Assembly (NCBI GenBank): GCA_964475955.1
Contig: CAYYZY010000019.1
Span: forward strand, 22-64,021
DNA length: 64,000 bases
From: an uncultured Planctomycetaceae bacterium
Lineage (GTDB): Bacteria > Planctomycetota > Planctomycetia > Pirellulales > Thermoguttaceae
Reading direction: 5' to 3'
The position numbers and the translations under genes were made by a program. The notes beneath the pieces are model-generated. The model searched no databases and was not told the origin of the DNA. It saw only the letters and a list, made by a program, of their open reading frames with translations. Shown here piece by piece: positions 2,563-59,178 of this stretch (positions within the stretch are counted from its first letter, which is position 1; every line of letters starts with the position of its first letter).

Positions 2563-5343
2563 TCACGGGGCCGGGTTCAGAAGGAGGCTGACGGGCGCGA
2601 AGTGCGTCAGTTCCACGTCGAGCGCCCCGTCGCGAACCGGGACCGGCTCGCCCCGCGGCCGGCCGCGGAGATCGCACGGCTGGGCCTGCGAAACGTCCAT
2701 CCCCCCGGGAAGCCGCACGCGGCACGGCCCGTCGTCGCCCGACTGCTCCCAGAGGCGCAGCAGGATGCCGTCGCCGTCCGGGTTGGGGCCGAACGCGGTC
2801 ACGAGCACGCCCTTGCGCGAGAGGTCGATTCCGGATTGTGTCGCTGGCAGCGTGCCGGCGGGGCCGTCGAAGTACGCGGCCAGGCAAGGCGACCGCGCCT
2901 CCCACGACGGCGTGATCAGGTCGGCCTCGATCCCCTCGCCTTCGACCGCCCAGATGCGTACCCGCAACTGCCACGAGCCCTCGGTCCACTGCTGGAAGTT
3001 GGTGCCCCAGACGTTGTTGAAGAGACCCACGAACACCACGGGCTCGCGCTGGCCGAACTCCTTCGTATGCTGGTACAGGCCCGGCCGCCCGATGCTCACC
3101 AGCGGCGAGTCGAGCGGAGACAGCCCCACGCCTCGGCCGTCCGGGCCGGTGATCGTCATGCCGGTCGAAAGGCAGAAGACGTCGAAGTTCGACCCGCGCC
3201 GCGCGTCCTTCGCTGGGTCGATCACCGAGCCGAGCCGCCCCAGGCGGAACGTGGGGTCGTCGACGTTGAACGGCAGGCAGAGCCAACCGGCTTCGGGCCA
3301 TGGGTCGGGCTGCTTGTCGAACAGGGTGAAATCGAGGTCCACGTACGGCCGGTTGGGGTCGAGTTGCACCGCGAGATCAACTCCAAAGGGGACGTCCTCG
3401 CCGCGCTCGGCGCGAACCCGCCCCGTTGTCGACGTGAATGCGGCCGGCGCGAACTGGTTCGGCGAGGCAGCGGAGTAGGGGGCCTTGTCGGCAGGCGGGA
3501 GGTTGCCGCGGGCGAAGTGCGGGGCCCACCCGGGAATGTACTTCAGGTAGCTGTCGAAGTACGACTTGATGTTGTCGGCGTCGAATCGCTCGTAGAGGCA
3601 CTGCCCGAAGCCGTACCGGGACGACGCGTCGACCAGCTCCCGGCCTGACCGCTTGTCGACCAACGAGGTCACCACCCCGCGTTTCGGATCGAGACACACG
3701 CGGAAGTAGCGGTTCTCGATCGTCGCGCCATCCACCCCGGCGCGTTTCCGGTCGCCGGGCCCGGCGTCGGCTGGGACGTACGTCCGCCATCCCATCGCCG
3801 GCAGGTTCCGGGCAACGAAGCAGAGCCGGGTCTGCTTCGTCCGCACCGTCTCCGCCATGCCGGCTCCCGCGACGGTCGTTGTCTTGACGGACTGTTGCAC
3901 GTCGACGGGGATCGTCTCGCCCGTGCTTGCGTCCTTCAGGGCGTGGACCTCCCGAGCGGGCAGTTCGACGGACACCACTCCGTCGCGCCGCCAGGGGAGC
4001 GGATTGAACACGACGACCCGCGGGCCGTCGACGTTCACGGCCCGCGCCAACGTGTCGACCTGCTTCTCCAACGCCGGCACGATAGCCTCTTCCGCCTCGC
4101 AGATGTACGCCCCATGCTCGCCCCACGACTGCTCCAGCCGGGCGCAGTGCCCCTTCTCGCGCAGCTTCGCCCACTCGTCGCCGTAGTGATAGCCGAACGG
4201 GCTCATCGAGTAGCCCCACGTATGCTCGCCGTACATCAGGCTGCCCTCGTATGCCTCGGCGACGGCCCTGTCGACGGCCGGTGCTTCGACCCCCCAGGTG
4301 CGAAGCAGCGTGTTCAGCGCCTCGGTAGCCCCGATCTGCGGGCGGACGTTCCTGGCGAGCGCGGTCTCCTGGGGCATCGACATGATCCCGTGGATCCACG
4401 TATCGGGCATGTCGGCCCGGACGACCGGCAGGTCGGGCTTCTCGGCGAGGATCGCGTCGGCGAAGTCGGAGAGGCGGCCCATGCGGATCTTGGCGCCGGG
4501 CAGCTCGCGCTCGCCCTGGGCCAGGAGTTTTTGCACCTGGTCGGGCGGCGGCGGGCCGTGGTTGTCGCCCGTGTGGATCAGGGCGAGCCAGGTCTTGTAC
4601 GGCCAGTCGTCGGGCGGCTTCAGCCCGCTGCCGTAGCCGCTCGCCTCGTACATCGTGAGTACGCGCGAGCCGTCGGGCCCTTCCCACCAGAAGAGCCGGG
4701 GCACTTCGGGCGAGCCGCTGGCCGAGTTGCAGCCGAGGTGCAGGAAGTCGACGCCCGCGTGCGCGAGCACCGTGGGCACGATCCACATGTGCGACGGCAC
4801 GTCGGTCATCTTCGCGTCGCGTGCCGACGGCATCCCGAAACGCCGCGAAAGCCGCGAGGAGAACCCCATGCCGCGCACGAAGTCCTCCAGATCGAGCGAT
4901 TCGGTGTGCGTGGTGGCCGGCAGGGCGTGCCATACCAGGCGCCCCTCGCGGATCGCCCGCTCGATCCGCTCGCGCCGCTCGGGCGTTTGGCGGGGCCCGA
5001 GGATCTGGGCCATGGGCCAGCCGGGGACCGTCCACACGAAGCGATGCTCCGGGGGCAGCTCGCGCGTCGCGTCGCAGACGGCCAGCGCCTTATCGATCAT
5101 CGACGTGCGGTAGCGCTCGACCACCTCGCTGGCCAGCGCCGTGTAGCCGACGTCGAAGTGCGTCTTGAAGACGACGACCACCTGCTCCAGCGCCGGCTTG
5201 CCGGGCCGTTCCGGCGCGGCCGACTCCGCGGCGCGCAGGCGGAGGCCGAGCGCGGTCGAAAGGACGAGAAACAAGAGGATCGACGAACGAACCGGGATCG
5301 TGCGCGGCACGGCTGCGTCCTCCTTATTCAGCGCGAAGTTCAT
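2563..5343 (-). CDS. Secreted glycoside hydrolase, GH38-like (alpha-mannosidase-type N-terminal domain)
   Basis: 926-aa ORF with an N-terminal signal-like segment (SSILLFLVLSTALGL). VVVVFKTHFDVGYT resembles the GH38 H-x-H-x-D-x-G-W metal-site motif (first His replaced). Size and multi-domain length fit GH38. Family call is by motif only. Confidence 0.55.
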   Translation of the reverse strand: MNFALNKEDAAVPRTIPVRSSILLFLVLSTALGLRLRAAESAAPERPGKPALEQVVVVFKTHFDVGYTALASEVVERYRTSMIDKALAVCDATRELPPEHRFVWTVPGWPMAQILGPRQTPERRERIERAIREGRLVWHALPATTHTESLDLEDFVRGMGFSSRLSRRFGMPSARDAKMTDVPSHMWIVPTVLAHAGVDFLHLGCNSASGSPEVPRLFWWEGPDGSRVLTMYEASGYGSGLKPPDDWPYKTWLALIHTGDNHGPPPPDQVQKLLAQGERELPGAKIRMGRLSDFADAILAEKPDLPVVRADMPDTWIHGIMSMPQETALARNVRPQIGATEALNTLLRTWGVEAPAVDRAVAEAYEGSLMYGEHTWGYSMSPFGYHYGDEWAKLREKGHCARLEQSWGEHGAYICEAEEAIVPALEKQVDTLARAVNVDGPRVVVFNPLPWRRDGVVSVELPAREVHALKDASTGETIPVDVQQSVKTTTVAGAGMAETVRTKQTRLCFVARNLPAMGWRTYVPADAGPGDRKRAGVDGATIENRYFRVCLDPKRGVVTSLVDKRSGRELVDASSRYGFGQCLYERFDADNIKSYFDSYLKYIPGWAPHFARGNLPPADKAPYSAASPNQFAPAAFTSTTGRVRAERGEDVPFGVDLAVQLDPNRPYVDLDFTLFDKQPDPWPEAGWLCLPFNVDDPTFRLGRLGSVIDPAKDARRGSNFDVFCLSTGMTITGPDGRGVGLSPLDSPLVSIGRPGLYQHTKEFGQREPVVFVGLFNNVWGTNFQQWTEGSWQLRVRIWAVEGEGIEADLITPSWEARSPCLAAYFDGPAGTLPATQSGIDLSRKGVLVTAFGPNPDGDGILLRLWEQSGDDGPCRVRLPGGMDVSQAQPCDLRGRPRGEPVPVRDGALDVELTHFAPVSLLLNPAP

Positions 5344-50672: not shown

Positions 50673-51461
50673 TCAATGCCACGTGACCGTCACCGGCTCG
50701 CCGACTTGAGCGTCGAGCGACCGGGCCGCGCTTGCGCCGACGATTGCCAACTCGAGCCGGCCGGTGGAGCCGACCAACGCGATGAGGGCGCCGGGCCGCC
50801 GGTCGCCGTACGTGGTCGAGACGCCGTCGATTTCCCGGCCCGCGCATTGGATGCGGATGCGCCGCCCCGCGGGCACCTTGGCGAGCATGACGGCGGAGAC
50901 GTTGGTGACGACGTTGCCGAACGAGTCGACGTCGAGCACCTGGCCGGCGATTTGCCCGGGCGTGGCGACCGGCTCCGGCCAGTCGAGCATCACGAGGCTT
51001 TCCACCGCCGGGCCGAGCTTCGCCGGATCGAGTCCCCGGCTGAGATGGCCGGCGACCGGCGCCATGACGTCGCGTCCGTGAAAGGTCGCCGAGACCGGCT
51101 CGAGCCAGTATTGCGGCTCGGTCAGTCGCCGGAGCCGTGCAGGAGGCGTGCGACGCGCGAGTCGCGAAAGCAGGCCGTTATCGGGGGCAACGTAACGGTG
51201 CCCGTCGATCTCGGCGTAGAGAATCGCCCGATCCGTGCCCACTCCCGGATCGACCACGGCGACGTGAATCGCATCCTCGGGCGGGAAGCGAGGGGCGACG
51301 TCGTCGAGCACGAGGGCGGCGTGGCGCACGTCCTGCGGGCGCACGCTGTGGGTGATATCAACCAGCGTGGCGGCCGGGTTGATCGAAAGGATCACCCCCT
51401 TCATAGCCGCCACGTACGGGCTGCCGGTGCCGAAGTCGGTCGTGAGGGTGATGATGGTCAC
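50673..51461 (-). CDS. SAM hydrolase / SAM-dependent halogenase family protein (DUF62)
   Basis: The GTG start overlaps the gatB stop (GTGA). MTIITLTTDFGTGSPYVAAMKGVILSINP..LVDITH is the family N-terminal signature. Confidence 0.85.
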   Translation of the reverse strand: MTIITLTTDFGTGSPYVAAMKGVILSINPAATLVDITHSVRPQDVRHAALVLDDVAPRFPPEDAIHVAVVDPGVGTDRAILYAEIDGHRYVAPDNGLLSRLARRTPPARLRRLTEPQYWLEPVSATFHGRDVMAPVAGHLSRGLDPAKLGPAVESLVMLDWPEPVATPGQIAGQVLDVDSFGNVVTNVSAVMLAKVPAGRRIRIQCAGREIDGVSTTYGDRRPGALIALVGSTGRLELAIVGASAARSLDAQVGEPVTVTWH

Positions 51462-52996
51462 ATCTTCTCAATCAGCTCCAGGCAAATCTCCCGCACGCGG
51501 CCCGGGTTGACGTTGGGGTTCTTCTTCTTCGCCTGGCCGATCAGCGCCCCGGCGGCCTTCAGCTTGCCGGCCTTCACTTCGGCTACGACCTTGGGGTTGG
51601 CCTCGAGCAGTTCCCGGCAGAGCGACTCCAGTTCCGACTCGTCGACCTCGGCGATCCCCAGCGCTTCCATCGCCTGATCCACCGAGCTGTGCGACCGGAT
51701 CATCTCGGCCAGCACTTCGCGGCCCCGGGTGGTGGGCATCTTGCCGGCGAGCACTTGGCGGATCAGCCGGGCCAGCTCGTCGGCCGGCACGGCGAACCGG
51801 TCGATGCCGATTTGCGCTTCGTTGAGCGCCTGGAAGACCGACTGCTGCATCCAGTTCGAGGCCGCCTTGCCCTCGCCGCAGGCCCGGGCCACGCGCTCGT
51901 AGTAGTCGACCAGCGCGCGGCCCTGGTTGACGAGCACGTCGCTGTCGTAGGGCGGGATTCCGTAGACCTCCTCGAGCCGCGACCGCAACCGGGCGGGCAG
52001 CTCGCCCAGCGAACGGCGGACCCGGTCGATCCCTTCGCCGGCGGTGGTGACCGGCAGCAGGTCGGGCTCGGGAAAGTAGCGGTAGTCGCTCGATTCCTCC
52101 TTCGACCGCTGCGCCCGGGTGATCTGGGCGGCTTCGTCCCACCCGCGGGTCTGCTTGGGGGCCTCGCCCAGCCGCCGGCCCGACTCCCGCCACACCTCGT
52201 ACTGCCGCTCGGCTTCGTAGGCCAACGCCCGCTCCACCGACCGGAAGCTGTTCATGTTCTTCACTTCGACGATGGGCGTGGGGACCGTGCCCTGGGGCGT
52301 GTCGACGTGGAGGTTGACGTTGGCGTCGACGCGCAGGCTGCCCTCCTGCATGTTGCAGTCGGAAACGCCCAGGTAGTTCAAAAGCAGCTTCAGTTCCGTC
52401 AGGTAGGCCTTGGCCTCGGCGGGGGATCGCATGTCGGGGTGGCTGACGATCTCCATCAGCGGCGTGCCGGTGCGGTTCAGGTCGATGCGGCTGTCGGCCT
52501 TGCCGGCCTGCTCGTCGTGCATGCTCTTGCCGGCGTCTTCCTCCAGGTGCACCCGGATGATGCCGATGTCCTTCGGCTCGACCTCCCCCTTGGCGTCGCT
52601 GATGGGCAGGTGGCCTTCCGAGCCGAGCGGCAGATCGAACTGGCTGATCTGATAGCCCTTGGGAAGGTCCGGGTAGTAGTAGTTCTTCCGGTCCCACTTG
52701 GTGAACTTGGCGATGGTGCAGTTCAGCGCCAGGGCCGCCTTCACGGCCAGTTCGTACGCCCTGCGGTTCATCACGGGCAGCACGCCGGGCATGCCGATGC
52801 ACACGGGGCATGTCTGCGTGTTGGGCGGCGCGCCGAACGCGGTCGAGCACCCGCAAAACAGCTTGCTCTCGGTGAGCAATTGGACGTGGACTTCCAGGCC
52901 GATGATGATTTGGTAGGGTTGAGTCACGGTAGGGATCACAGGCTCAAGTTGGTTGATTCGATGTCGCGGCGAAGTGACGCGAGCGGGCTTCGCCAC
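51458..52996 (-). CDS. gatB: Asp/Glu-tRNA amidotransferase subunit B
   Basis: YQIIIGLEVHVQL, CPVCIGMPGVLP, NRKNYYYPDLPKGYQISQ, and the C-terminal YqeY-like GKLKAAGALIGQ. The start is uncertain (GTG 52996, or an internal GTG at about 52939/52927). Confidence 0.93.
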   Translation of the reverse strand: MAKPARVTSPRHRINQLEPVIPTVTQPYQIIIGLEVHVQLLTESKLFCGCSTAFGAPPNTQTCPVCIGMPGVLPVMNRRAYELAVKAALALNCTIAKFTKWDRKNYYYPDLPKGYQISQFDLPLGSEGHLPISDAKGEVEPKDIGIIRVHLEEDAGKSMHDEQAGKADSRIDLNRTGTPLMEIVSHPDMRSPAEAKAYLTELKLLLNYLGVSDCNMQEGSLRVDANVNLHVDTPQGTVPTPIVEVKNMNSFRSVERALAYEAERQYEVWRESGRRLGEAPKQTRGWDEAAQITRAQRSKEESSDYRYFPEPDLLPVTTAGEGIDRVRRSLGELPARLRSRLEEVYGIPPYDSDVLVNQGRALVDYYERVARACGEGKAASNWMQQSVFQALNEAQIGIDRFAVPADELARLIRQVLAGKMPTTRGREVLAEMIRSHSSVDQAMEALGIAEVDESELESLCRELLEANPKVVAEVKAGKLKAAGALIGQAKKKNPNVNPGRVREICLELIEKM

Positions 52997-53014
52997 GCTG
53001 AAGCGGCCCCACTC

Positions 53015-53362
53015 TCACAATGCCAAGGTGCAGCGCAGAGCATCATCGACCAGGTGCATGTCGGAGCAGCGCCCGATTACCCGGTCGATCTCGGTCTCCA
53101 GAACCGTAGCCAGGTTGTCCGCCATCACGACGGAATCGGTGCGCAATCCCATTTCCCTCCCTTCCGGGGATGCCCGGGTTACTTCCACGCGGCTCGGATG
53201 CCCGGCGCGTCGCAGATTGCTGGTAATCATCGCAACAATGGTCTGCGACAGTCCCGTCATCAACTCGTCCGCCTGAACTACCAGCGCCGGCCGCCGCTTG
53301 GCGGTGACCAGGTTAGAGTCCGGGAACAGGACGAGCACCACGTCACCGCGACGGAGGTTCAT
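53015..53362 (-). CDS. PemK/MazF-family toxin (mRNA interferase)
   Basis: ATG 53362 within ORF 53015..53467. MNLRRGDVVLVLFPDSNLVTAKRRPALVVQAD...SVVMADNLATV. Confidence 0.8.
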   Translation of the reverse strand: MNLRRGDVVLVLFPDSNLVTAKRRPALVVQADELMTGLSQTIVAMITSNLRRAGHPSRVEVTRASPEGREMGLRTDSVVMADNLATVLETEIDRVIGRCSDMHLVDDALRCTLAL

Positions 53363-53582
53363 CGTAGACGTCCATTTCCGGGCGCTGCCAGTCCTCGGCA
53401 AACGACGCGAGTCGTCGGCGCAGATCGCTGGCTTGTTCTGGGTCGATACCGCGCTGGGCGAGGTCAACCGATCCGTCCTCTGTGAGGAACATCACGAGGA
53501 CCGGCCCTTCGGCTCCTTCCGGTGCCGGCTCAAGCAATTCGATCTTGCCGTCGCGGTAGACGCCTTGGACAGACTTTCGCAT
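53343..53582 (-). CDS. Putative antitoxin (DUF104/AF2212-like small protein)
   Basis: ATG 53582: MRKSVQGVYRDGKIELLEPAPEGAEGPVLVMFL... It overlaps the MazF start by 20 nt. Confidence 0.6.
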   Translation of the reverse strand: MRKSVQGVYRDGKIELLEPAPEGAEGPVLVMFLTEDGSVDLAQRGIDPEQASDLRRRLASFAEDWQRPEMDVYDEPPSR

Positions 53583-53584
53583 GG

Positions 53585-53770
53585 CTAGGAATCCCTGCAA
53601 CCTGGCGGTCTTCGAGCCGCCTCCGCCGCGCGCACTCTGTACTCGTACTTCGCAACGCGGACGATCTCCACGGCATCACCAGGCTTCAGGCCGTGTGAAC
53701 GGAAGAAATCCTTCACCGCGCGGTGAGAAGTGCGAAACGTCTTGTGGCGGCCGGATATGTCCGTCGCCAA
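53585..53770 (-). CDS. Hypothetical small protein, possibly AbrB/SpoVT-like
   Basis: 61-aa ORF ending 2 nt before the antitoxin start. HRAVKDFFRSHGLKPGDAVEIVRVAKYEYRV loosely resembles the AbrB/MazE swapped-hairpin motif. Weak. Confidence 0.25.
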   Translation of the reverse strand: MATDISGRHKTFRTSHRAVKDFFRSHGLKPGDAVEIVRVAKYEYRVRAAEAARRPPGCRDS

Positions 53771-53993
53771 CGATACTCCGCGCTGCCATAACTAGACCCT
53801 TTCCAGCCGACCCCCGCGGAATCGCCGTCCAAAAGAGGACAGGCTCCTCACGCGGGCACTTCCCCCCGCGTGCGGTCGTTTGGTACTCGGAGGCAGTCCC
53901 CTTCTTGACTCGGCTTACAGTCTGAGGTTCGGTCCTCGGGACATAACGTCGCGGCGAGCTCGGCCGGCAGGTTCTCGTCCAGCTTGATCCGCA

Positions 53994-54230
53994 TCAGATA
54001 CTCGGCAGCCCGGCATAAGGCATGTCGTCCACCGCAGCCGCCGCCGCGAATGCGATGGCAGCCCGCACGTGCTCGGCCGAAAGGGTCGGAAAGCCCCGCA
54101 GGACGTCTTCCTCCGAGTCCCCATCCGCCAGACTGGCCAAGACCGTGCGCAGCGGGACGCGTGTCCCTCGAAACACGGGATCACCGCCACAGATTCGGCG
54201 GTCGCGAACAATCAGTTCGGTTGGTTCCAT
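53994..54230 (-). CDS. DUF433-domain protein (orphan antitoxin-like)
   Basis: ATG 54230: MEPTELIVRDRRICGGDPVFRGTRVPLRTVLASLADGDSEEDVLRGFPTLSAEHVRAAIAFA. Confidence 0.75.
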   Translation of the reverse strand: MEPTELIVRDRRICGGDPVFRGTRVPLRTVLASLADGDSEEDVLRGFPTLSAEHVRAAIAFAAAAAVDDMPYAGLPSI

Positions 54231-54360
54231 CGGATTCCTACCGTTCAAAACACACGGAAGCCGAGTTCGCTCCACGCTCGGGCGGGATGGTCGCCATTGG
54301 ACTCTCGACCTTGCAGGAGAATCACGGATTCGGTGGTGTTCAGAGGAGCCAACCCGAGTG

Positions 54361-54732
54361 TTATCCGAAGATGGGCAGCCTCCGAACGCGGACTCGGTAC
54401 GGTTCGAGCACGACGACAGCCCCTGCCCCCAGTTGCTCGCCAACCTCAGGTAAGTTCGCCACCAACAGACGCGCCTGCTCTTCCGGGCGCCGCGGGGTAC
54501 TGCCACGAAAGAGGACGACCGAAGGCTTCGTTTCCTTCCGCAACGCCAGCAAGGTGCCGAAATCGGTGTCGGCCGATACGACCGCCCGGCCCTCAGAGGC
54601 ACACCATGCGAATACCTCTGCGTCTTCGGCCGCCTGGAGGCCGACATCGCGAACGTGCACGGCGTCGTAGCCGGCTTCGCGAAGGCGCTCGGCGACCAAG
54701 GGAGACAGGGCGTTATCGACCAGGAACTTCAT
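54361..54732 (-). CDS. DUF5615-family PIN-like (Mut7-C-like) putative toxin
   Basis: [43 protein letters not shown]...[13 protein letters not shown]. Confidence 0.75.
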
Positions 54733-54734
54733 GG

Positions 54735-54956
54735 CTACGACACCAGCGGTAGCTCGCGTTCTCGCACCGCTTCTGCGGCAAACCGAAGCGCCTCCCGGAC
54801 GTCGTCCGCGTCAAGGTCAGGATACGCCTTGAGGATCTCGTCGCTGCTCATGCCGTCCGCAACCATCCCCACCACTGTGGCGACAGGGATGCGCAGACCT
54901 CGGATACAGGGGACCCCCCCCATTTGCTTCGAGTTGATCGTAATTCGTTCGAACAT
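54735..54956 (-). CDS. DUF433-domain protein (putative antitoxin of the DUF5615 partner)
   Basis: [52 protein letters not shown]. It ends 2 nt before the DUF5615 start. Confidence 0.8.
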
Positions 54957-54960
54957 GGTT

Positions 54961-55470
54961 TCATTCCGTCAACACCAGTTGCTTCGGCCGGGCTAATCTC
55001 GCGCGCCGGGACACACGCTGCTCATATGGCAGAACAGAACAAAGCGAGAACATGTCCATCATCCGCTCCCCGCCGTGCTCGGGATTGCCGATCAGCCTTT
55101 GGCCCACCGGATCGAGCACGAAGTCGAGCAACTCCAAGGGGACCTGGCCGATCAGCACCGGGCAGTCGTCCGGCACGGCGGCGACCTCGATGATGCAATC
55201 CCGCTCCTGGACGGTCAGCCGCGCGGCGTCGTAGATGCCGATCTCGACCGTCCCCGCGGTGGTCCGGGCACGGCGCCGCCTCAGCCCCAACTGCTCCACG
55301 AGCTTGCGCGGCACGGACAACAGGGTCGCTCCCGTGTCGACCAGCGCGTCGGGGACGTCGATCGTGCGCACGTCGCCTTCCGCACGTTCCCCCTTGCGCG
55401 CCTCGTCGAGATCGTAGAGATTCTCGATCCTCGCCGGAACGGTCACTCTGCCCATTCTGACGATCTCCAT
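54961..55470 (-). CDS. Retropepsin-like (clan AA) aspartic protease
   Basis: 169 aa with the active-site block ALVDTGATLLSVP and downstream VLIGQVPLELLDFVLDPVGQRL. It ends 4 nt before the DUF433 start. Confidence 0.7.
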   Translation of the reverse strand: MEIVRMGRVTVPARIENLYDLDEARKGERAEGDVRTIDVPDALVDTGATLLSVPRKLVEQLGLRRRRARTTAGTVEIGIYDAARLTVQERDCIIEVAAVPDDCPVLIGQVPLELLDFVLDPVGQRLIGNPEHGGERMMDMFSLCSVLPYEQRVSRRARLARPKQLVLTE

Positions 55471-55578
55471 GGTTTCAACCCCCGACGTTTCGGCCAGAAA
55501 CGAGCTCGGCCAGCAACCGACGAATCCTTCCTTCCCATTCTATCGCGTCGTCGAGCGCCGGTCCACGCAGGGCGGCAT

Positions 55579-57120
55579 TCACTCGACCGCCGCCCTGCGC
55601 GTGTGCCAATCCGTCGCCTCCTGGAACATGTGCGCCGCACGGAGCAGTCGCTCCTCTTCAAACGGGGGCGCCTGGAGGTGCAGCCCAATGGGAAGCCCCT
55701 CGGAGCTGAAGCCGCACGGGATCGAGATGCCGGCGATGCCCGCCAGGTTCGTGCTCACCGTGTAGAGGTCGAACAGGTACATGGAGAGGGGGTCGTCGAC
55801 CTTCTCGCCGATCCGGTAGGCGGGCGCCGGGGCGACGGGGCCGGCAACGAGGTCGACCTCCTCGAACGCCCGATCGAAGTCCCGCCGAATCAGCCGGCGG
55901 ACCTTCAGCGCCTTGAGATAGTAGGCGTCGTAGTAGCCCGCGCTCAGGGCGTAGGTGCCCAGCATGATGCGGCGCTTCACCTCGGGACCAAAGCCCTCAG
56001 CACGCGTGCGGCGGAACATGTGCACGACCAGGCTGTCGAGATCGTCCAGCGCGGCCTGGCCGCCGGCCTGCTGGAGCCGCTTGCGCTCGGCCTCCAGTTC
56101 GGCGATCATCTGTTTCTCGTCGGTCCGGTATCCGTAGTGAACGCCGTCGTAGCGGGCCAGGTTGCTGGAGGCTTCGCTGGGCGCGATGATGTAGTAGGTC
56201 GCCACGGCGTATCGGCTGTGCGGCATGGAGATCTCGCGCACCGTCGCGCCCCGCGACTCGTATACGCCGATCGCCTCGCGCACCGCGGCCTCGACCTCCG
56301 CGTCGAGCCCCTGGCCGAAATGCTCGCGGACCAGCCCGATCCGCAGCCCCGCGAGCGGCTCGCGCACGCTTCGCGCGTAATGGGGCACGGGGCGATCGAC
56401 CGAAGTGGAGTCGTTCGGGTCGTATCCGGCCAGGACTTCCAGCAGCAGGGCGGCGTCTTCGGCGGTGCGGCCCAGCGGACCGACCTGGTCGAGGCTGCTG
56501 GCGAACGCCACCAGCCCGTAGCGGCTCACCCGGCCGTACGTCGGCTTCATGCCGGTCACGCCGCACAGCCCGGCCGGCTGACGGATCGACCCCCCGGTGT
56601 CGCTCCCCACGGCCAACGGGGCCATCGACGCGGCCACGCACGCGGCCGAGCCCCCGCTGGAGCCGCCGGGGATGCGGTCGAGGCCCCATGGGTTGCGGGT
56701 CACCTGAAAGGCCGAGTTCTCCGTGGAACCGCCCATGGCGAACTCGTCCATGTTCGTCTTGCCGATCAGCACGGCGTCGGCCGAGTGCAGCGCCGCGACG
56801 ACCGTGGCGTCGTAGGGGGGGCGGAAGTTCTCCAGCATGCGCGAGGCGCAGGTGGTCGGTTCGCCGCGCGTGGTGAGCACGTCCTTGACGGCCACCGGCA
56901 GCCCGCCGAGCGTTCCCAGCGGCTGGCCGCGCTTGCGCTTCCGGTCGATGTGGTCCGCCCGGCGAAGCGCCTCGTCGGCCTCGACGCGCAGAAACGCGCC
57001 GACCCGTCCGTCGTGCGATTCGATCCGGTCCAGGAAGGCCCGGGTCACTTCGACCGAGGTCGTCTCGCCCGAGTCGAGCAGCGACAACAACTCCGTAGCG
57101 GTCCGATCCACCAGCGCCAT
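55579..57120 (-). CDS. gatA: Glu-tRNA(Gln) amidotransferase subunit A
   Basis: 513 aa with the amidase signature [12 protein letters not shown]. Also [18 protein letters not shown] and [13 protein letters not shown]. Confidence 0.95.
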
Positions 57121-57334
57121 AGGTCCACCTCAACCACTGCCAGGAGCTCTCGGCCCGGGGCCGTCAGCCAGGAAACGGTCCGACGCCCTTCGCACGTGAG
57201 CACGCCCCTCGGAACGCGCTCCCCGCGGCCGCGGCACGCCTCGGAGGGCGTTCTCCACAGTTCGTGTCGGCAGTCGCGCAGGCCCACCTGGAGGGCGCGA
57301 CCGTTCCCTGGGGTTGTACGCTGGAGCGAGCGGC

Positions 57335-57628
57335 TCACAGTTCGCCCAGCACGGCGGGCACCCGATAGCACTCGTCGTCGCGATTCGGCGCGTTGGCCAG
57401 GGCCCGATCGCGGTCGAGGCTGGGGCGGACGCGGTCGTCGCGGAACACGTCGGCCAGATCGAAGGCGTGGGCCATCGGCTCCACTCCCTCGGTGTCGACC
57501 TCGGCCAACAGGTCCATGTACTGGAGGATCGCGTCCAGTTGGGTCGTCATCTTGTCGAGTTCTTCCTCCGACAAGCGCAGGCGCCCCAACAGCGAGACCT
57601 TCTCGACTTCCTCGCGGGAGATGGCCAT
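57335..57628 (-). CDS. gatC: Asp/Glu-tRNA amidotransferase subunit C
   Basis: ATG 57628 within ORF 57335..58171: MAISREEVEKVSLLGRLRLSEEELDKMTTQLDAILQYMDLLAEVDTEGVEPM; 97 aa. Confidence 0.9.
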   Translation of the reverse strand: MAISREEVEKVSLLGRLRLSEEELDKMTTQLDAILQYMDLLAEVDTEGVEPMAHAFDLADVFRDDRVRPSLDRDRALANAPNRDDECYRVPAVLGEL

Positions 57629-57632
57629 GGGC

Positions 57633-57950
57633 CTACTTCTTCTTCGACTTCTTCTTACGCCGCGGCGTCTCGGCGGCCGTCGCGTCGGCCCCCGGGGGGA
57701 GATTGAACGGAGCGCTGCGGACCCGCTTGTTGACGGCGCCGCTGCGGATGCACTGCGCGCACACCCGCATCGTCTTGTGCGCACCGTCGGCGCTCGTGAC
57801 CCGCACTCGCTGAAGGTTGGGCCGGAACTTCCGCCGGGTGATCCCGGTGACCTTCGTTCCCACGCCGCCCAAGTACTTGGCCTTTCCGCGATGCGACACC
57901 GAGTTGCCCATCGCCACGCCCTTGCCACACACTTCACAAACACGAGCCAT
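57633..57950 (-). CDS. rpmB: 50S ribosomal protein L28
   Basis: MARVCEVCGKGVAMGNSVSHRGKAKYLGGVGTKVTGITRRKFRPNLQRVRV, with a Lys-rich C-terminal tail. Confidence 0.9.
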   Translation of the reverse strand: MARVCEVCGKGVAMGNSVSHRGKAKYLGGVGTKVTGITRRKFRPNLQRVRVTSADGAHKTMRVCAQCIRSGAVNKRVRSAPFNLPPGADATAAETPRRKKKSKKK

Positions 57951-58455
57951 CCCAAAACTCCCTCAGCGCGCACCTTTCGCAAAAGACGAAACTGCCAATA
58001 TATCGACACCCGCCCGGGGTACGCAAGGGCGCCGCCGCCCAGATGGCGGTCCGGCCGACCGCTTTTCGCGACGGCCGCCCCTTCGTGCCCGGCAAGATTG
58101 CGGGAGCGCAATCCCTGCAAGCGGGTCGCCTTTGCCCACCGGGTGCGAAGGGACGAAAAGGTGGAACGCACGACGCAACTCGTTTCCCCGATTGCTCTTC
58201 GCGCCTAAGGCGGTGGTGAGCGCGAGGGGGAACGGAAGGCGCGGCATCCGGAATGGCATCTTGCCAAGCCGCACGGGAGTATCCCCGCCTTTCATCGCCT
58301 GCATGACCCCAGAGAGGGGGTGTCGCTCCCGCCTCCGCGGCGTTTCTCGCGGCTTCGGTCAAATCGCCTTGAAACGCGGGTTGAAAGCTGGCAAGATAGG
58401 CTGGGTACACAAGAACCACGCCCTCCGTGTTGGGCCACGCTTGAGGAGCTTCGCG

Positions 58456-59178
58456 ATGAAGACTCGTCGTCAGGCTGCGTTGCTGCTGGTGATTTGCACC
58501 GCCCTGCCGGGCGTGATCGGGGCCGCCCAGCCCGAGCCAAGCCCCACGGCCGACCAGCGAGCGGGGACCCCCACCCGGGGCGAGGCCTTCGTTTCGATGC
58601 TGACGCGGCACTCGGGCGCCCCGATCCTGGCAGTCCGGTACCCATGGAAGCGGCACGCTCGGCCATCGGTCGAGGTCCGCGTGCTCCATTCGAGTGAGCT
58701 GGGCGCCCCGTTGATCCGGCCGATGTTCTTCGTGCACAGCCTGATGAAGGGCAACGTGACGACGGCCGTCTACCGCTGCCAGGACAAGTCGGAAAACGTG
58801 CCTCAGTCGGCTGTCTTCTCCAAGGGCGAGTTCGACTTCGAGGTGTTCGGCGCGAGGAATTCGCTGGGCCGGCCCTCGGTCTGCGTGACCGCGCGAACCG
58901 CGAACGACCGCCCACGCGCTCCCGCGAAACCCACCCAGTCCCAGGAGGCCGACGAGTTGAGCGTGGCCCTGCCCGAGTCGCGCTTGCCGGCCCGGCTGCC
59001 GGAGACCCGGGCGGCCTTCCCACTGCTCGACGCCTGGGCGGTCGACGACCACACACTCTACCTGGAGCTTCCGGCCAAGTACTTCGCCCAGCCGTGCAAG
59101 CTCCGCATCTGGCTTCTGCGCCGAAGCCAAATCGTCTGGACCGCCACCCTCGACTGGCCCGGTTACCCGGACGCGTAG
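58456..59178 (+). CDS. Hypothetical secreted protein
   Basis: ATG 58456 within ORF 57817..59178, giving MKTRRQAALLLVICTALPGVIGAA signal. No family recognised. Confidence 0.55.
   Translation: MKTRRQAALLLVICTALPGVIGAAQPEPSPTADQRAGTPTRGEAFVSMLTRHSGAPILAVRYPWKRHARPSVEVRVLHSSELGAPLIRPMFFVHSLMKGNVTTAVYRCQDKSENVPQSAVFSKGEFDFEVFGARNSLGRPSVCVTARTANDRPRAPAKPTQSQEADELSVALPESRLPARLPETRAAFPLLDAWAVDDHTLYLELPAKYFAQPCKLRIWLLRRSQIVWTATLDWPGYPDA

Follow-up and report, generated by a model that had tools for sequence, protein, structure and literature searches.

The stretch analyzed here (the window) comprises 64,000 nucleotides of an uncultured Planctomycetaceae bacterium of the Thermoguttaceae (GenBank assembly GCA_964475955.1, contig CAYYZY010000019.1) and carries the gatCAB genes of the Gln/Asn-tRNA amidation pathway, with an island of small open reading frames (ORFs) between gatA and gatB. 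A hidden Markov model (HMM) search placed the GatC, GatA, and GatB domains in C-A-B order on one strand. An earlier reading made from the sequence alone (the sequence-only reading) had put rpmB, gatC, gatA, the small-ORF block, and gatB all on the minus strand, with the small modules lying inside the gatC-gatA...gatB string in the same orientation as gat; coordinates and HMM matches bore out both statements. Downstream, the start of a gene for an S-adenosylmethionine (SAM) hydroxide adenosyltransferase overlaps the gatB stop. The G+C content is about 0.62 in the interval, compared with 0.67-0.73 in the flanks. The same reading had counted seven small genes between gatA and gatB. The small-gene block stands, but the count does not: there are five intact genes and two remnants (Table 1).

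Table 1. Features of the gatCAB string and of the island between gatA and gatB (positions in the window)
Feature	Position	Strand	Basis and remarks
rpmB (ribosomal protein L28)	57633-57950	-	PF00830 Ribosomal_L28 2.3e-19; 4 nt upstream of gatC
gatC	57335-57628	-	PF02686 4e-26
gatA	55579-57120	-	Amidase 2.3e-158; 84-85% DNA identity to genus relatives
gatA-gatB interval, 2.65 kb	52928-55578	-	Block of small ORFs
gatA-retropepsin spacer, 108 nt	55471-55578	-	Covered in G002 and L043 by a long BLAST alignment that extends from the end of gatA into the retropepsin gene
Retropepsin-like (clan AA) gene, 169-aa ORF	54961-55470	-	Conserved core 55049-55470; last 28 codons specific to this junction
DUF433a, COG2442-type antitoxin partner	54735-54956	-	PF04255 6.2e-24; 89% DNA identity to G002
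DUF5615/PIN_10/Mut7-C-like putative toxin, 123 aa, intact	54361-54732	-	PF18480 1.3e-26, PF18478 1e-9
DUF433b, COG2442-type antitoxin-like gene	53994-54230	-	PF04255 2.2e-20; 79% DNA identity to L044
48-aa ORF, 5' stump of a DUF5615 (PIN-like) toxin gene	53848-53994	-	ATG overlaps the DUF433b stop (ATGA)
Segment with no homologue, ~190 nt	53771-53956	-	Upstream 110 nt lie within the 48-aa stump ORF
61-aa ORF, 3' remnant of a 256-273-aa gene (unk273 family)	53585-53770	-	DNA homology to G001 and G020
Presumed MazF antitoxin, 79 aa	53343-53582	-	Upstream of MazF; 20-nt overlap with the MazF start
MazF/PemK-family toxin gene, 115 aa	53015-53362	-	PF02452 4e-16, 59.6 bits (cutoff, 23.1)
MazF-gatB spacer, 87 nt	52928-53014	-	76.6% identical to G001; fold z +0.3 against shuffles
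gatB	51458-52927	-	GatB_N 1.5e-112, GatB_Yqey 2.9e-29; conserved GTG start at 52927

For comparison we used about 110 related Pirellulales loci, with counts given below for 40 genomes of the order and for 80 further loci. Handles of loci begin with L. This genome is referred to as G000, and its two congeners are G001 and G002.

The MazF toxin gene nearest to gatB, already called from the sequence, was confirmed by a PF02452 match above the family cutoff, and it is 84% identical in DNA to the copy at the same position in G001. The 79-aa ORF that overlaps its start belongs to a family that in relatives always lies upstream of MazF: it precedes MazF in G001, L043, and L073, while G020, L058, and L066 have it alone or in remnant form. 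The label "DUF104-like" given to it earlier had to be dropped, as there was no match in Pfam, NCBIfam, PADLOC, or PDB, either with the single sequence or with a 5-sequence profile. Its family shows a conserved C-terminal "FAEDWQRPEMDVYD" segment, to which no family is assigned, and its AlphaFold model, built on a shallow alignment, was unusable, with a predicted local distance difference test (pLDDT) score of 47.5. By position only, the 79-aa protein is presumed to be the antitoxin. G000, G001, and L043 are collinear from the antitoxin ATG via MazF into gatB, and the pair is apparently intact.

The distance between this module and gatB needed correction. A value of 18 nt had been given, which stems from taking the longest possible ORF as gatB. 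The start context "GTG AGC/ACT GAA/CAA CCC TAC" is shared by 7 of 14 aligned relatives, with an ATG start in 5 others, and DNA homology of the gatB region to relatives lacking MazEF begins at 52909-52939. With the gatB start at GTG 52927, the spacer is therefore 87 nt long, and it was inherited together with the MazEF module. At the other end of the island, the 108-nt spacer behind gatA, when aligned on its own, gave no match covering more than 60% of its length. The only promoter-like site in it, at 55565-55537, and a weak hairpin at 55520-55506 are no more than chance would give, and the spacer has a fold z score of +0.75. Predicted terminators in the region were likewise not above chance (6 found, compared with 4.1 ± 1.9 expected). 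Farther upstream, the gatC-gatA spacer (57121-57334) is unusually long at 214 nt and holds only a spurious-looking 42-aa ORF; an Rfam scan of 51000-58500, which includes this spacer, gave no match.

HMM matches to PF04255 and PF18480 agreed with the proposed DUF433/DUF5615 pair. DUF433a lies directly upstream of the DUF5615 gene, with a 2-nt gap, and the latter is 86% identical in DNA to its counterpart in G002. An acidic residue, D6, and a D-x-D-F motif are kept in all eight DUF5615 homologues compared and are presumably catalytic. The pair is apparently intact and is also found at the gatA-gatB junction in G002, L050, and L079. The second DUF433 gene, DUF433b, had been described as an orphan. 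Its family was confirmed by PF04255, but it is not simply an orphan: the partner survives as a 48-aa stump that the sequence-only reading did not list. In L044, a DUF433b homologue has behind it, with the same ATGA overlap, the gene for a complete 120-aa DUF5615 protein, "MLIKLDENLPAVL..." (6.5e-21). The stump ORF has only its first 37 nt in common with this intact gene, and a local DUF5615 HMM aligns with its residues 1-17 only. The toxin partner of DUF433b is lost but for the stump. Homology to L044 stops at 53957 and homology to G001 and G020 begins at 53764-53766; the segment between is presumed to be a deletion scar joining two truncated genes.

The second of these truncated genes is the 61-aa ORF, previously called AbrB-like. 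That name was not upheld, as the ORF has no HMM match in Pfam or NCBIfam and is a gene remnant. Its positions 53615-53764 (150 nt) match the 3' end of a 273-aa G001 gene at 83% DNA identity and a 256-aa G020 gene at 73%; in tblastn it matches residues 220-263 of the 273-aa protein. This family, which we call unk273, is intact at L031:2364-3185 (G001) and L033:1899-2669 (G020), and its N-terminal part alone is present in L058, L081, and L107. The 256-273-aa proteins gave no match in Pfam, NCBIfam, or PADLOC. By eye, the N-terminal half shows an E...EFE.K...D pattern recalling PD-(D/E)XK nucleases, and the C-terminal "GLKPGDxVEI" segment, which looks barrel-like, is the part that survives as the 61-aa ORF.

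The gene adjoining gatA had been read as a retropepsin-like protease, and this holds in part. The protein exceeds the cutoff for Asp_protease_2 (25.4 bits; cutoff, 24.3), and five homologues share its LVDTGAT (D-T-G-A) and VLIG motifs without change, but it remains below the cutoffs for gag-asp_proteas (27.7; cutoff, 28.2) and TIGR03698 (34.1; cutoff, 57.35), which makes it a borderline member. A PDB sequence search with it found no match, and its AlphaFold model, on a shallow alignment, has a pLDDT of 34.5. The PDB sequence and profile searches with this protein and the 79-aa protein together returned spurious matches or none, and NCBIfam and PADLOC named no window protein, the sole match being the sub-threshold one to clan AA. 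The last 28 residues of the 169-aa ORF are absent from relatives. Four full-length homologues end after 144 aa at ...MIDLF/MMDMF, a truncated fifth (L055) ends at the same motif, and in five independent loci the DNA similarity reaches no farther than 55049. The ORF reaches 169 aa only because its own stop codon has been lost. The family is multicopy at the DNA level, with eight matches in G029, four in G012, and three further ones in G002; at the protein level, the genome itself holds three paralogues (on C5, C44, and C124). These paralogues have no consistent neighbors, although one is followed by an XRE-type helix-turn-helix gene.

We then compared the junction across the order. The gatA and gatB genes flank an interval on one contig in 24 of the 40 genomes and in 61 of the 80 further loci. 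Among the 40 genomes, the distance is 11-63 nt in ten, 180-800 nt in six, about 1.2 kb in three, and 2.0-2.6 kb in G001, G002, and G020, against 2.65 kb in the window; in the rest, the two genes are on different contigs. Among the 80 further loci, the gap is below 170 nt in 36, 170-500 nt in about 9, and at least 500 nt in about 14, and 19 have no gatA within the flank; these counts were corrected for two false gaps (L054 and L085), artifacts of truncated gatA alignments. The sequence-only reading had asked whether gatA and gatB are adjacent elsewhere: in most other Pirellulales they are, with the gatA stop abutting or overlapping the gatB start (GTGA type in the tight junctions). This layout, the one expected for translational coupling, is the ancestral state. 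Where gatB is truly apart from gatA, unrelated housekeeping genes lie upstream of it. In a gatB tree, the window falls into a clade of 36 rows with a Shimodaira-Hasegawa-like approximate likelihood ratio test (SH-aLRT) value of 96. In this clade, 17 junctions have a large insert, 4 have a small one, 7 are split, and 3 are tight, whereas 32 of the other 47 rows are tight. Junction inserts thus cluster in one clade. A look-up by protein identity found a single 2-kb contig (Logan) with the same arrangement as the window.

The inserts range from 0.2 to 2.6 kb and are shuffled combinations of about 15 small-gene families, among them MazEF, HicAB, VapBC, DUF433/DUF5615, AbiEii-like and DUF6932 nucleotidyltransferases (NTases), PDDEXK_3, and retropepsin. 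The suggestion that the island might be variable was confirmed already within one genus. Read from gatA to gatB, G001 has an AbiEii/NTP_transf_5-like NTase, unk273, a 59-aa coiled-coil protein, MazE-like, and MazF, and G002 has retropepsin, a 265-aa HhH-GPD-like protein, DUF433, and DUF5615. Elsewhere, the order is orphan MazE-like, unk256, DUF6932, coiled-coil, and a small membrane protein in G020; HicB, HicA, and NTase in G019; DUF433, unk80, DUF433, a DUF6932 remnant, and coiled-coil in G005; retropepsin, MazE-like, and MazF in L043; a small antitoxin-like ORF (AT70 family), MazE-like, MazF, and retropepsin in L073; and DUF433 and DUF5615 in L050. L096 and L107 carry a PIN-domain (VapC-type) gene with an antitoxin-like ORF without HMM match upstream, L094 and G026 carry PDDEXK_3, and G017 has HicB/HicA on the opposite strand. 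Remnants of unk273, DUF5615, DUF6932, MazE-like, and retropepsin genes occur across these junctions. Of 69 classified insert genes, 67 are co-oriented with gat and 2 are opposite.

DUF6932 NTase-like genes (L033:2697-3304, L081:6116-6909, and L035 of G005; PF22014 7.6e-23, PADLOC candidate PDC-M63A 1.7e-7) repeatedly form pairs with the gene of a coiled-coil protein of 59-83 aa whose end reads "...SLKKLINQLKEEI", and the two may form an undescribed two-gene module. A small predicted membrane protein with the motif "LAGMWRGAK(L/V)GF" (L033:3381-3740 and L061:988-1248) lies directly upstream of gatB in two lineages and has no family match. At L044, around 4850-4930, just upstream of gatB, tandem "CCACTG(A/T)CCACTGTC"-like repeats separate the last DUF433 gene from gatB. 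In the genome itself, paralogues of the island modules are scattered singly or in pairs, and no second array was found.

How long the modules have been in place can be judged from their divergence. DNA identity to the congeners is 84-85% for gatA and 87-88% for gatB, and the modules shared with relatives fall into a similar range: DUF433a, 89%; DUF5615, 86%; MazF, 84%; the unk273 remnant, 83%; retropepsin, 79%; and MazE-like, 78%. Within the genus, module identity (78-89%) therefore matches flank identity (84-88%), which argues for old residence, the acquisition events themselves being inferred only. A single BLAST alignment spans the gatA end and the retropepsin gene in G000, G002, and L043. 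Recent insertion and recent horizontal transfer are not supported, since module divergence equals that of the flanks and the same families recur across a family-level clade. The sequence-only reading had set an ancient conserved arrangement in relatives against its proposal. The relatives show this in part, as the same families recur at the junction and the modules are as diverged as the flanks. The island of G000 shows two visible deletion scars, and the ancestral array of the genus was probably larger, with each of the three species keeping a different subset after deletions.

The island had been described as embedded in an essential translation-fidelity operon whose expression could be coupled to that of the toxins. 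The genome encodes a glutaminyl-tRNA synthetase (GlnRS; 730 bits, cutoff 426, at C20:9825-11405) and an asparaginyl-tRNA synthetase (AsnRS; 520 bits, cutoff 343, split over C361:709-1854 and C244:10487-10747). In a sample of 25 Thermoguttaceae genomes, 22 have GlnRS, 21 of them with a score above the family cutoff; AsnRS is present in 38 of 41 sampled genomes. With both synthetases encoded, as in most of the family, GatCAB is therefore not obviously essential for decoding, and "essential" is an unproven label for the operon. One possible reason for keeping GatCAB is that asparagine is made on tRNA, as happens in Deinococcus and Thermus. Across 16 other families, there was no correlation between GlnRS presence and junction state.

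Taken together, these observations make it likely that the gatA-gatB junction of this Thermoguttaceae clade is a long-lived chromosomal hotspot and that the island is an old, decaying snapshot of it rather than a purpose-built link between toxins and tRNA amidation. The snapshot consists of two apparently intact pairs, one decayed pair, one gene remnant, and a retropepsin-like gene without its own stop. We envisage that the junction would have opened near the base of the clade holding this genome and would since have gained, shuffled, and lost small self-contained modules, most of them type II toxin-antitoxin pairs or lone toxin-like and defense-candidate genes. As gatB and the downstream SAM hydroxide adenosyltransferase gene would have to stay transcribed, the only inserts tolerated would be those that are co-oriented and free of terminators or that bring their own promoter. 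The near-uniform co-orientation of the inserts may be explained by this continuing need for transcription of gatB and the gene behind it. Transcription from gatCA probably continues through the modules. Read-through, combined with selection against polar inserts, fits the orientation bias, the short spacers, and the lack of terminators above chance.

The strongest competitor is a functional coupling in which cotranscription with gatCA ties toxin and antitoxin dosage to tRNA amidation, or in which gatB relies on promoters autoregulated by the toxin-antitoxin pairs. The strict co-orientation (67:2), the short spacers, the absence of convincing terminators, and the occupation of the junction across a family-level clade speak for such a coupling, and many of the resident families (MazF, HicA, PIN, and AbiEii/MenT-like NTases) belong to kinds that act on RNA or tRNA, with MazF, HicA, and PIN toxins being ribonucleases. 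However, the site has no family present throughout, and its modules degenerate in situ, as a toxin stump, a gene remnant, and antitoxins without partners show. In addition, several members of the clade have a tight junction or have gatB moved beside unrelated housekeeping genes, and GatCAB is not obviously limiting where GlnRS and AsnRS are encoded. We consider this coupling unlikely. Slightly less likely still is the specific version in which toxins acting on tRNA or translation (MazF, HicA, PIN-like, and AbiEii/MenT-like and DUF6932 NTases) are selectively kept, with gatCA read-through setting their dosage and their autoregulated promoters having taken over gatB expression; if it were true, growth-arrest modules would be linked to the tRNA-amidation pathway. 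As things stand, nothing indicates a role of the toxins in Gln/Asn-tRNA amidation, and the variable, decaying content speaks against a specific link. The coupling of toxin and gat expression suggested earlier is not supported, given the combinatorial content in relatives, the two decayed modules, and the lack of a constant partner. Stabilization of the locus by the toxins, also suggested, is neither needed nor indicated.

Two further explanations fare considerably worse. The genome encodes a genuine integron integrase, IntI, on contig C62 (TIGR02249, 473.6 bits; cutoff, 265), the only IntI above the cutoff, and it could have placed the small genes here as a cassette array at a secondary site. 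In keeping with this, IntI on C62 is followed by small PIN-type genes, and the inserts at the junction are small, co-oriented, and rich in toxin-antitoxin pairs, with homology breaking within a few nucleotides of start codons. However, neither intI nor attI adjoins the island, IntI being on C62 and not on C19, the pairs are organized as overlapping two-gene operons, and none of the five island spacers folds better than shuffles on either strand (z -1.3 to +1.3). The spacers also showed no direct or inverted repeats beyond chance and none common to them. A screen of 32 kb of junction DNA for R''/R' attC-like sites found nothing, but it also missed the C62 control and is uninformative. The region C62:34491-38574 consists of IntI and, up to the end of the contig, about 3 kb of lower-G+C DNA whose small genes include two for PIN-like toxins, both followed by a small partner; no classical attC sites were seen there by eye or in a simple screen. 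We regard an integron origin as highly improbable. Equally improbable, in our estimate, is a recently acquired genomic islet or a chimeric metagenome-assembled genome (MAG), which the G+C of 0.62 against about 0.70 in the flanks and a gene content typical of mobile DNA might suggest. Against this, separate assemblies (G001, G002, L043, and the Logan contig) show collinearity at the gatA-retropepsin and MazF-gatB junctions, the modules are as diverged as their flanks, and searches for an integrase, a tRNA, direct repeats, and duplicated ends of gatA or gatB gave nothing.

Several points weigh against the hotspot interpretation. The argument from read-through and polarity is one that we infer, and the 67:2 orientation count is inflated by shared ancestry. 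Most genomes compared are MAGs, so that the "split" cases may partly be assembly breaks. The equal identities of modules and flanks leave room for exchange by homologous recombination between close relatives. As to how the modules came in, we found no recombinase, repeats, or target duplications, and no insert contains a duplicated gatA 3' or gatB 5' end. The MazF partner has no recognizable antitoxin domain, and the toxins of the island are predicted ones, presumably ordinary ribonucleases restrained by their antitoxins.

If the junction is indeed such a hotspot, an ancestrally coupled, conserved operon can open, and toxin-antitoxin and defense-candidate genes can then both accumulate and decay in it over evolutionary time at the family level; the orientation bias would fit selection against polar effects on the downstream gene. 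Our knowledge of GatCAB is unchanged by the finding, which neatly but unremarkably exemplifies a familiar class of genome feature and cautions against inferring function from operon membership. In practical terms, the annotation is corrected (two ORFs turn out to be remnants, the retropepsin ORF runs beyond the point where its family normally stops, and the gatB start was misplaced), and several uncharacterized small-gene families of Thermoguttaceae gain a fixed address, namely unk273, DUF6932 with its coiled-coil partner, the 80-aa unk80, and the MazF partner. Our literature searches turned up no paper that connects gatCAB with inserted toxin-antitoxin genes.

Bacterial chromosomes in general have hotspots bounded by core genes (Oliveira et al. 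2017, PMC5635113), and defense and toxin-antitoxin islets occur in them (PMC10121019). Like these, the junction is a fixed interval between two conserved core genes with accessory content that varies among genomes, rapid turnover that leaves remnants, enrichment in toxin-antitoxin and defense genes, and no mobility gene inside. Unlike the usual hotspots, it lies inside an operon that was ancestrally translationally coupled, with the gatA stop overlapping the gatB start, and its inserts, with rare exceptions, run in the direction of the operon. Its content varies from species to species and genus to genus within an uncultured family, rather than from strain to strain, and the divergence reflects old inheritance and loss rather than ongoing transfer. 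The island also resembles the sedentary chromosomal integron arrays and clusters of attC sites lacking integron integrases (CALINs) in its run of small co-oriented genes with many toxin-antitoxin pairs and an integrase in the genome; unlike them, it has no attC-like sites between modules and no adjacent intI/attI, and it consists of two-gene operons with overlapping frames.

At the level of single modules, the pairing of DUF433 (COG2442) with PIN, predicted earlier (PMC2701414), is an experimentally validated toxin-antitoxin system in Synechocystis, vapBC10 (PMC3834315). DUF433a similarly lies directly upstream, by 2 nt, of a PIN-like gene of about 120 aa, with matching sizes and the acidic residues kept. 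However, the predicted island toxin is of the DUF5615/PIN_10/Mut7-C branch and not a PF01850 PIN protein, and the second copy (DUF433b) has lost its toxin. The MazF module agrees with MazEF/PemIK in having a 115-aa toxin of the PemK/MazF fold after an overlapping small ORF, the pair being inherited as a unit, and differs from them in that the upstream 79-aa protein matches no MazE, PemI, AbrB, ribbon-helix-helix (RHH), or AF2212 (DUF104) model.

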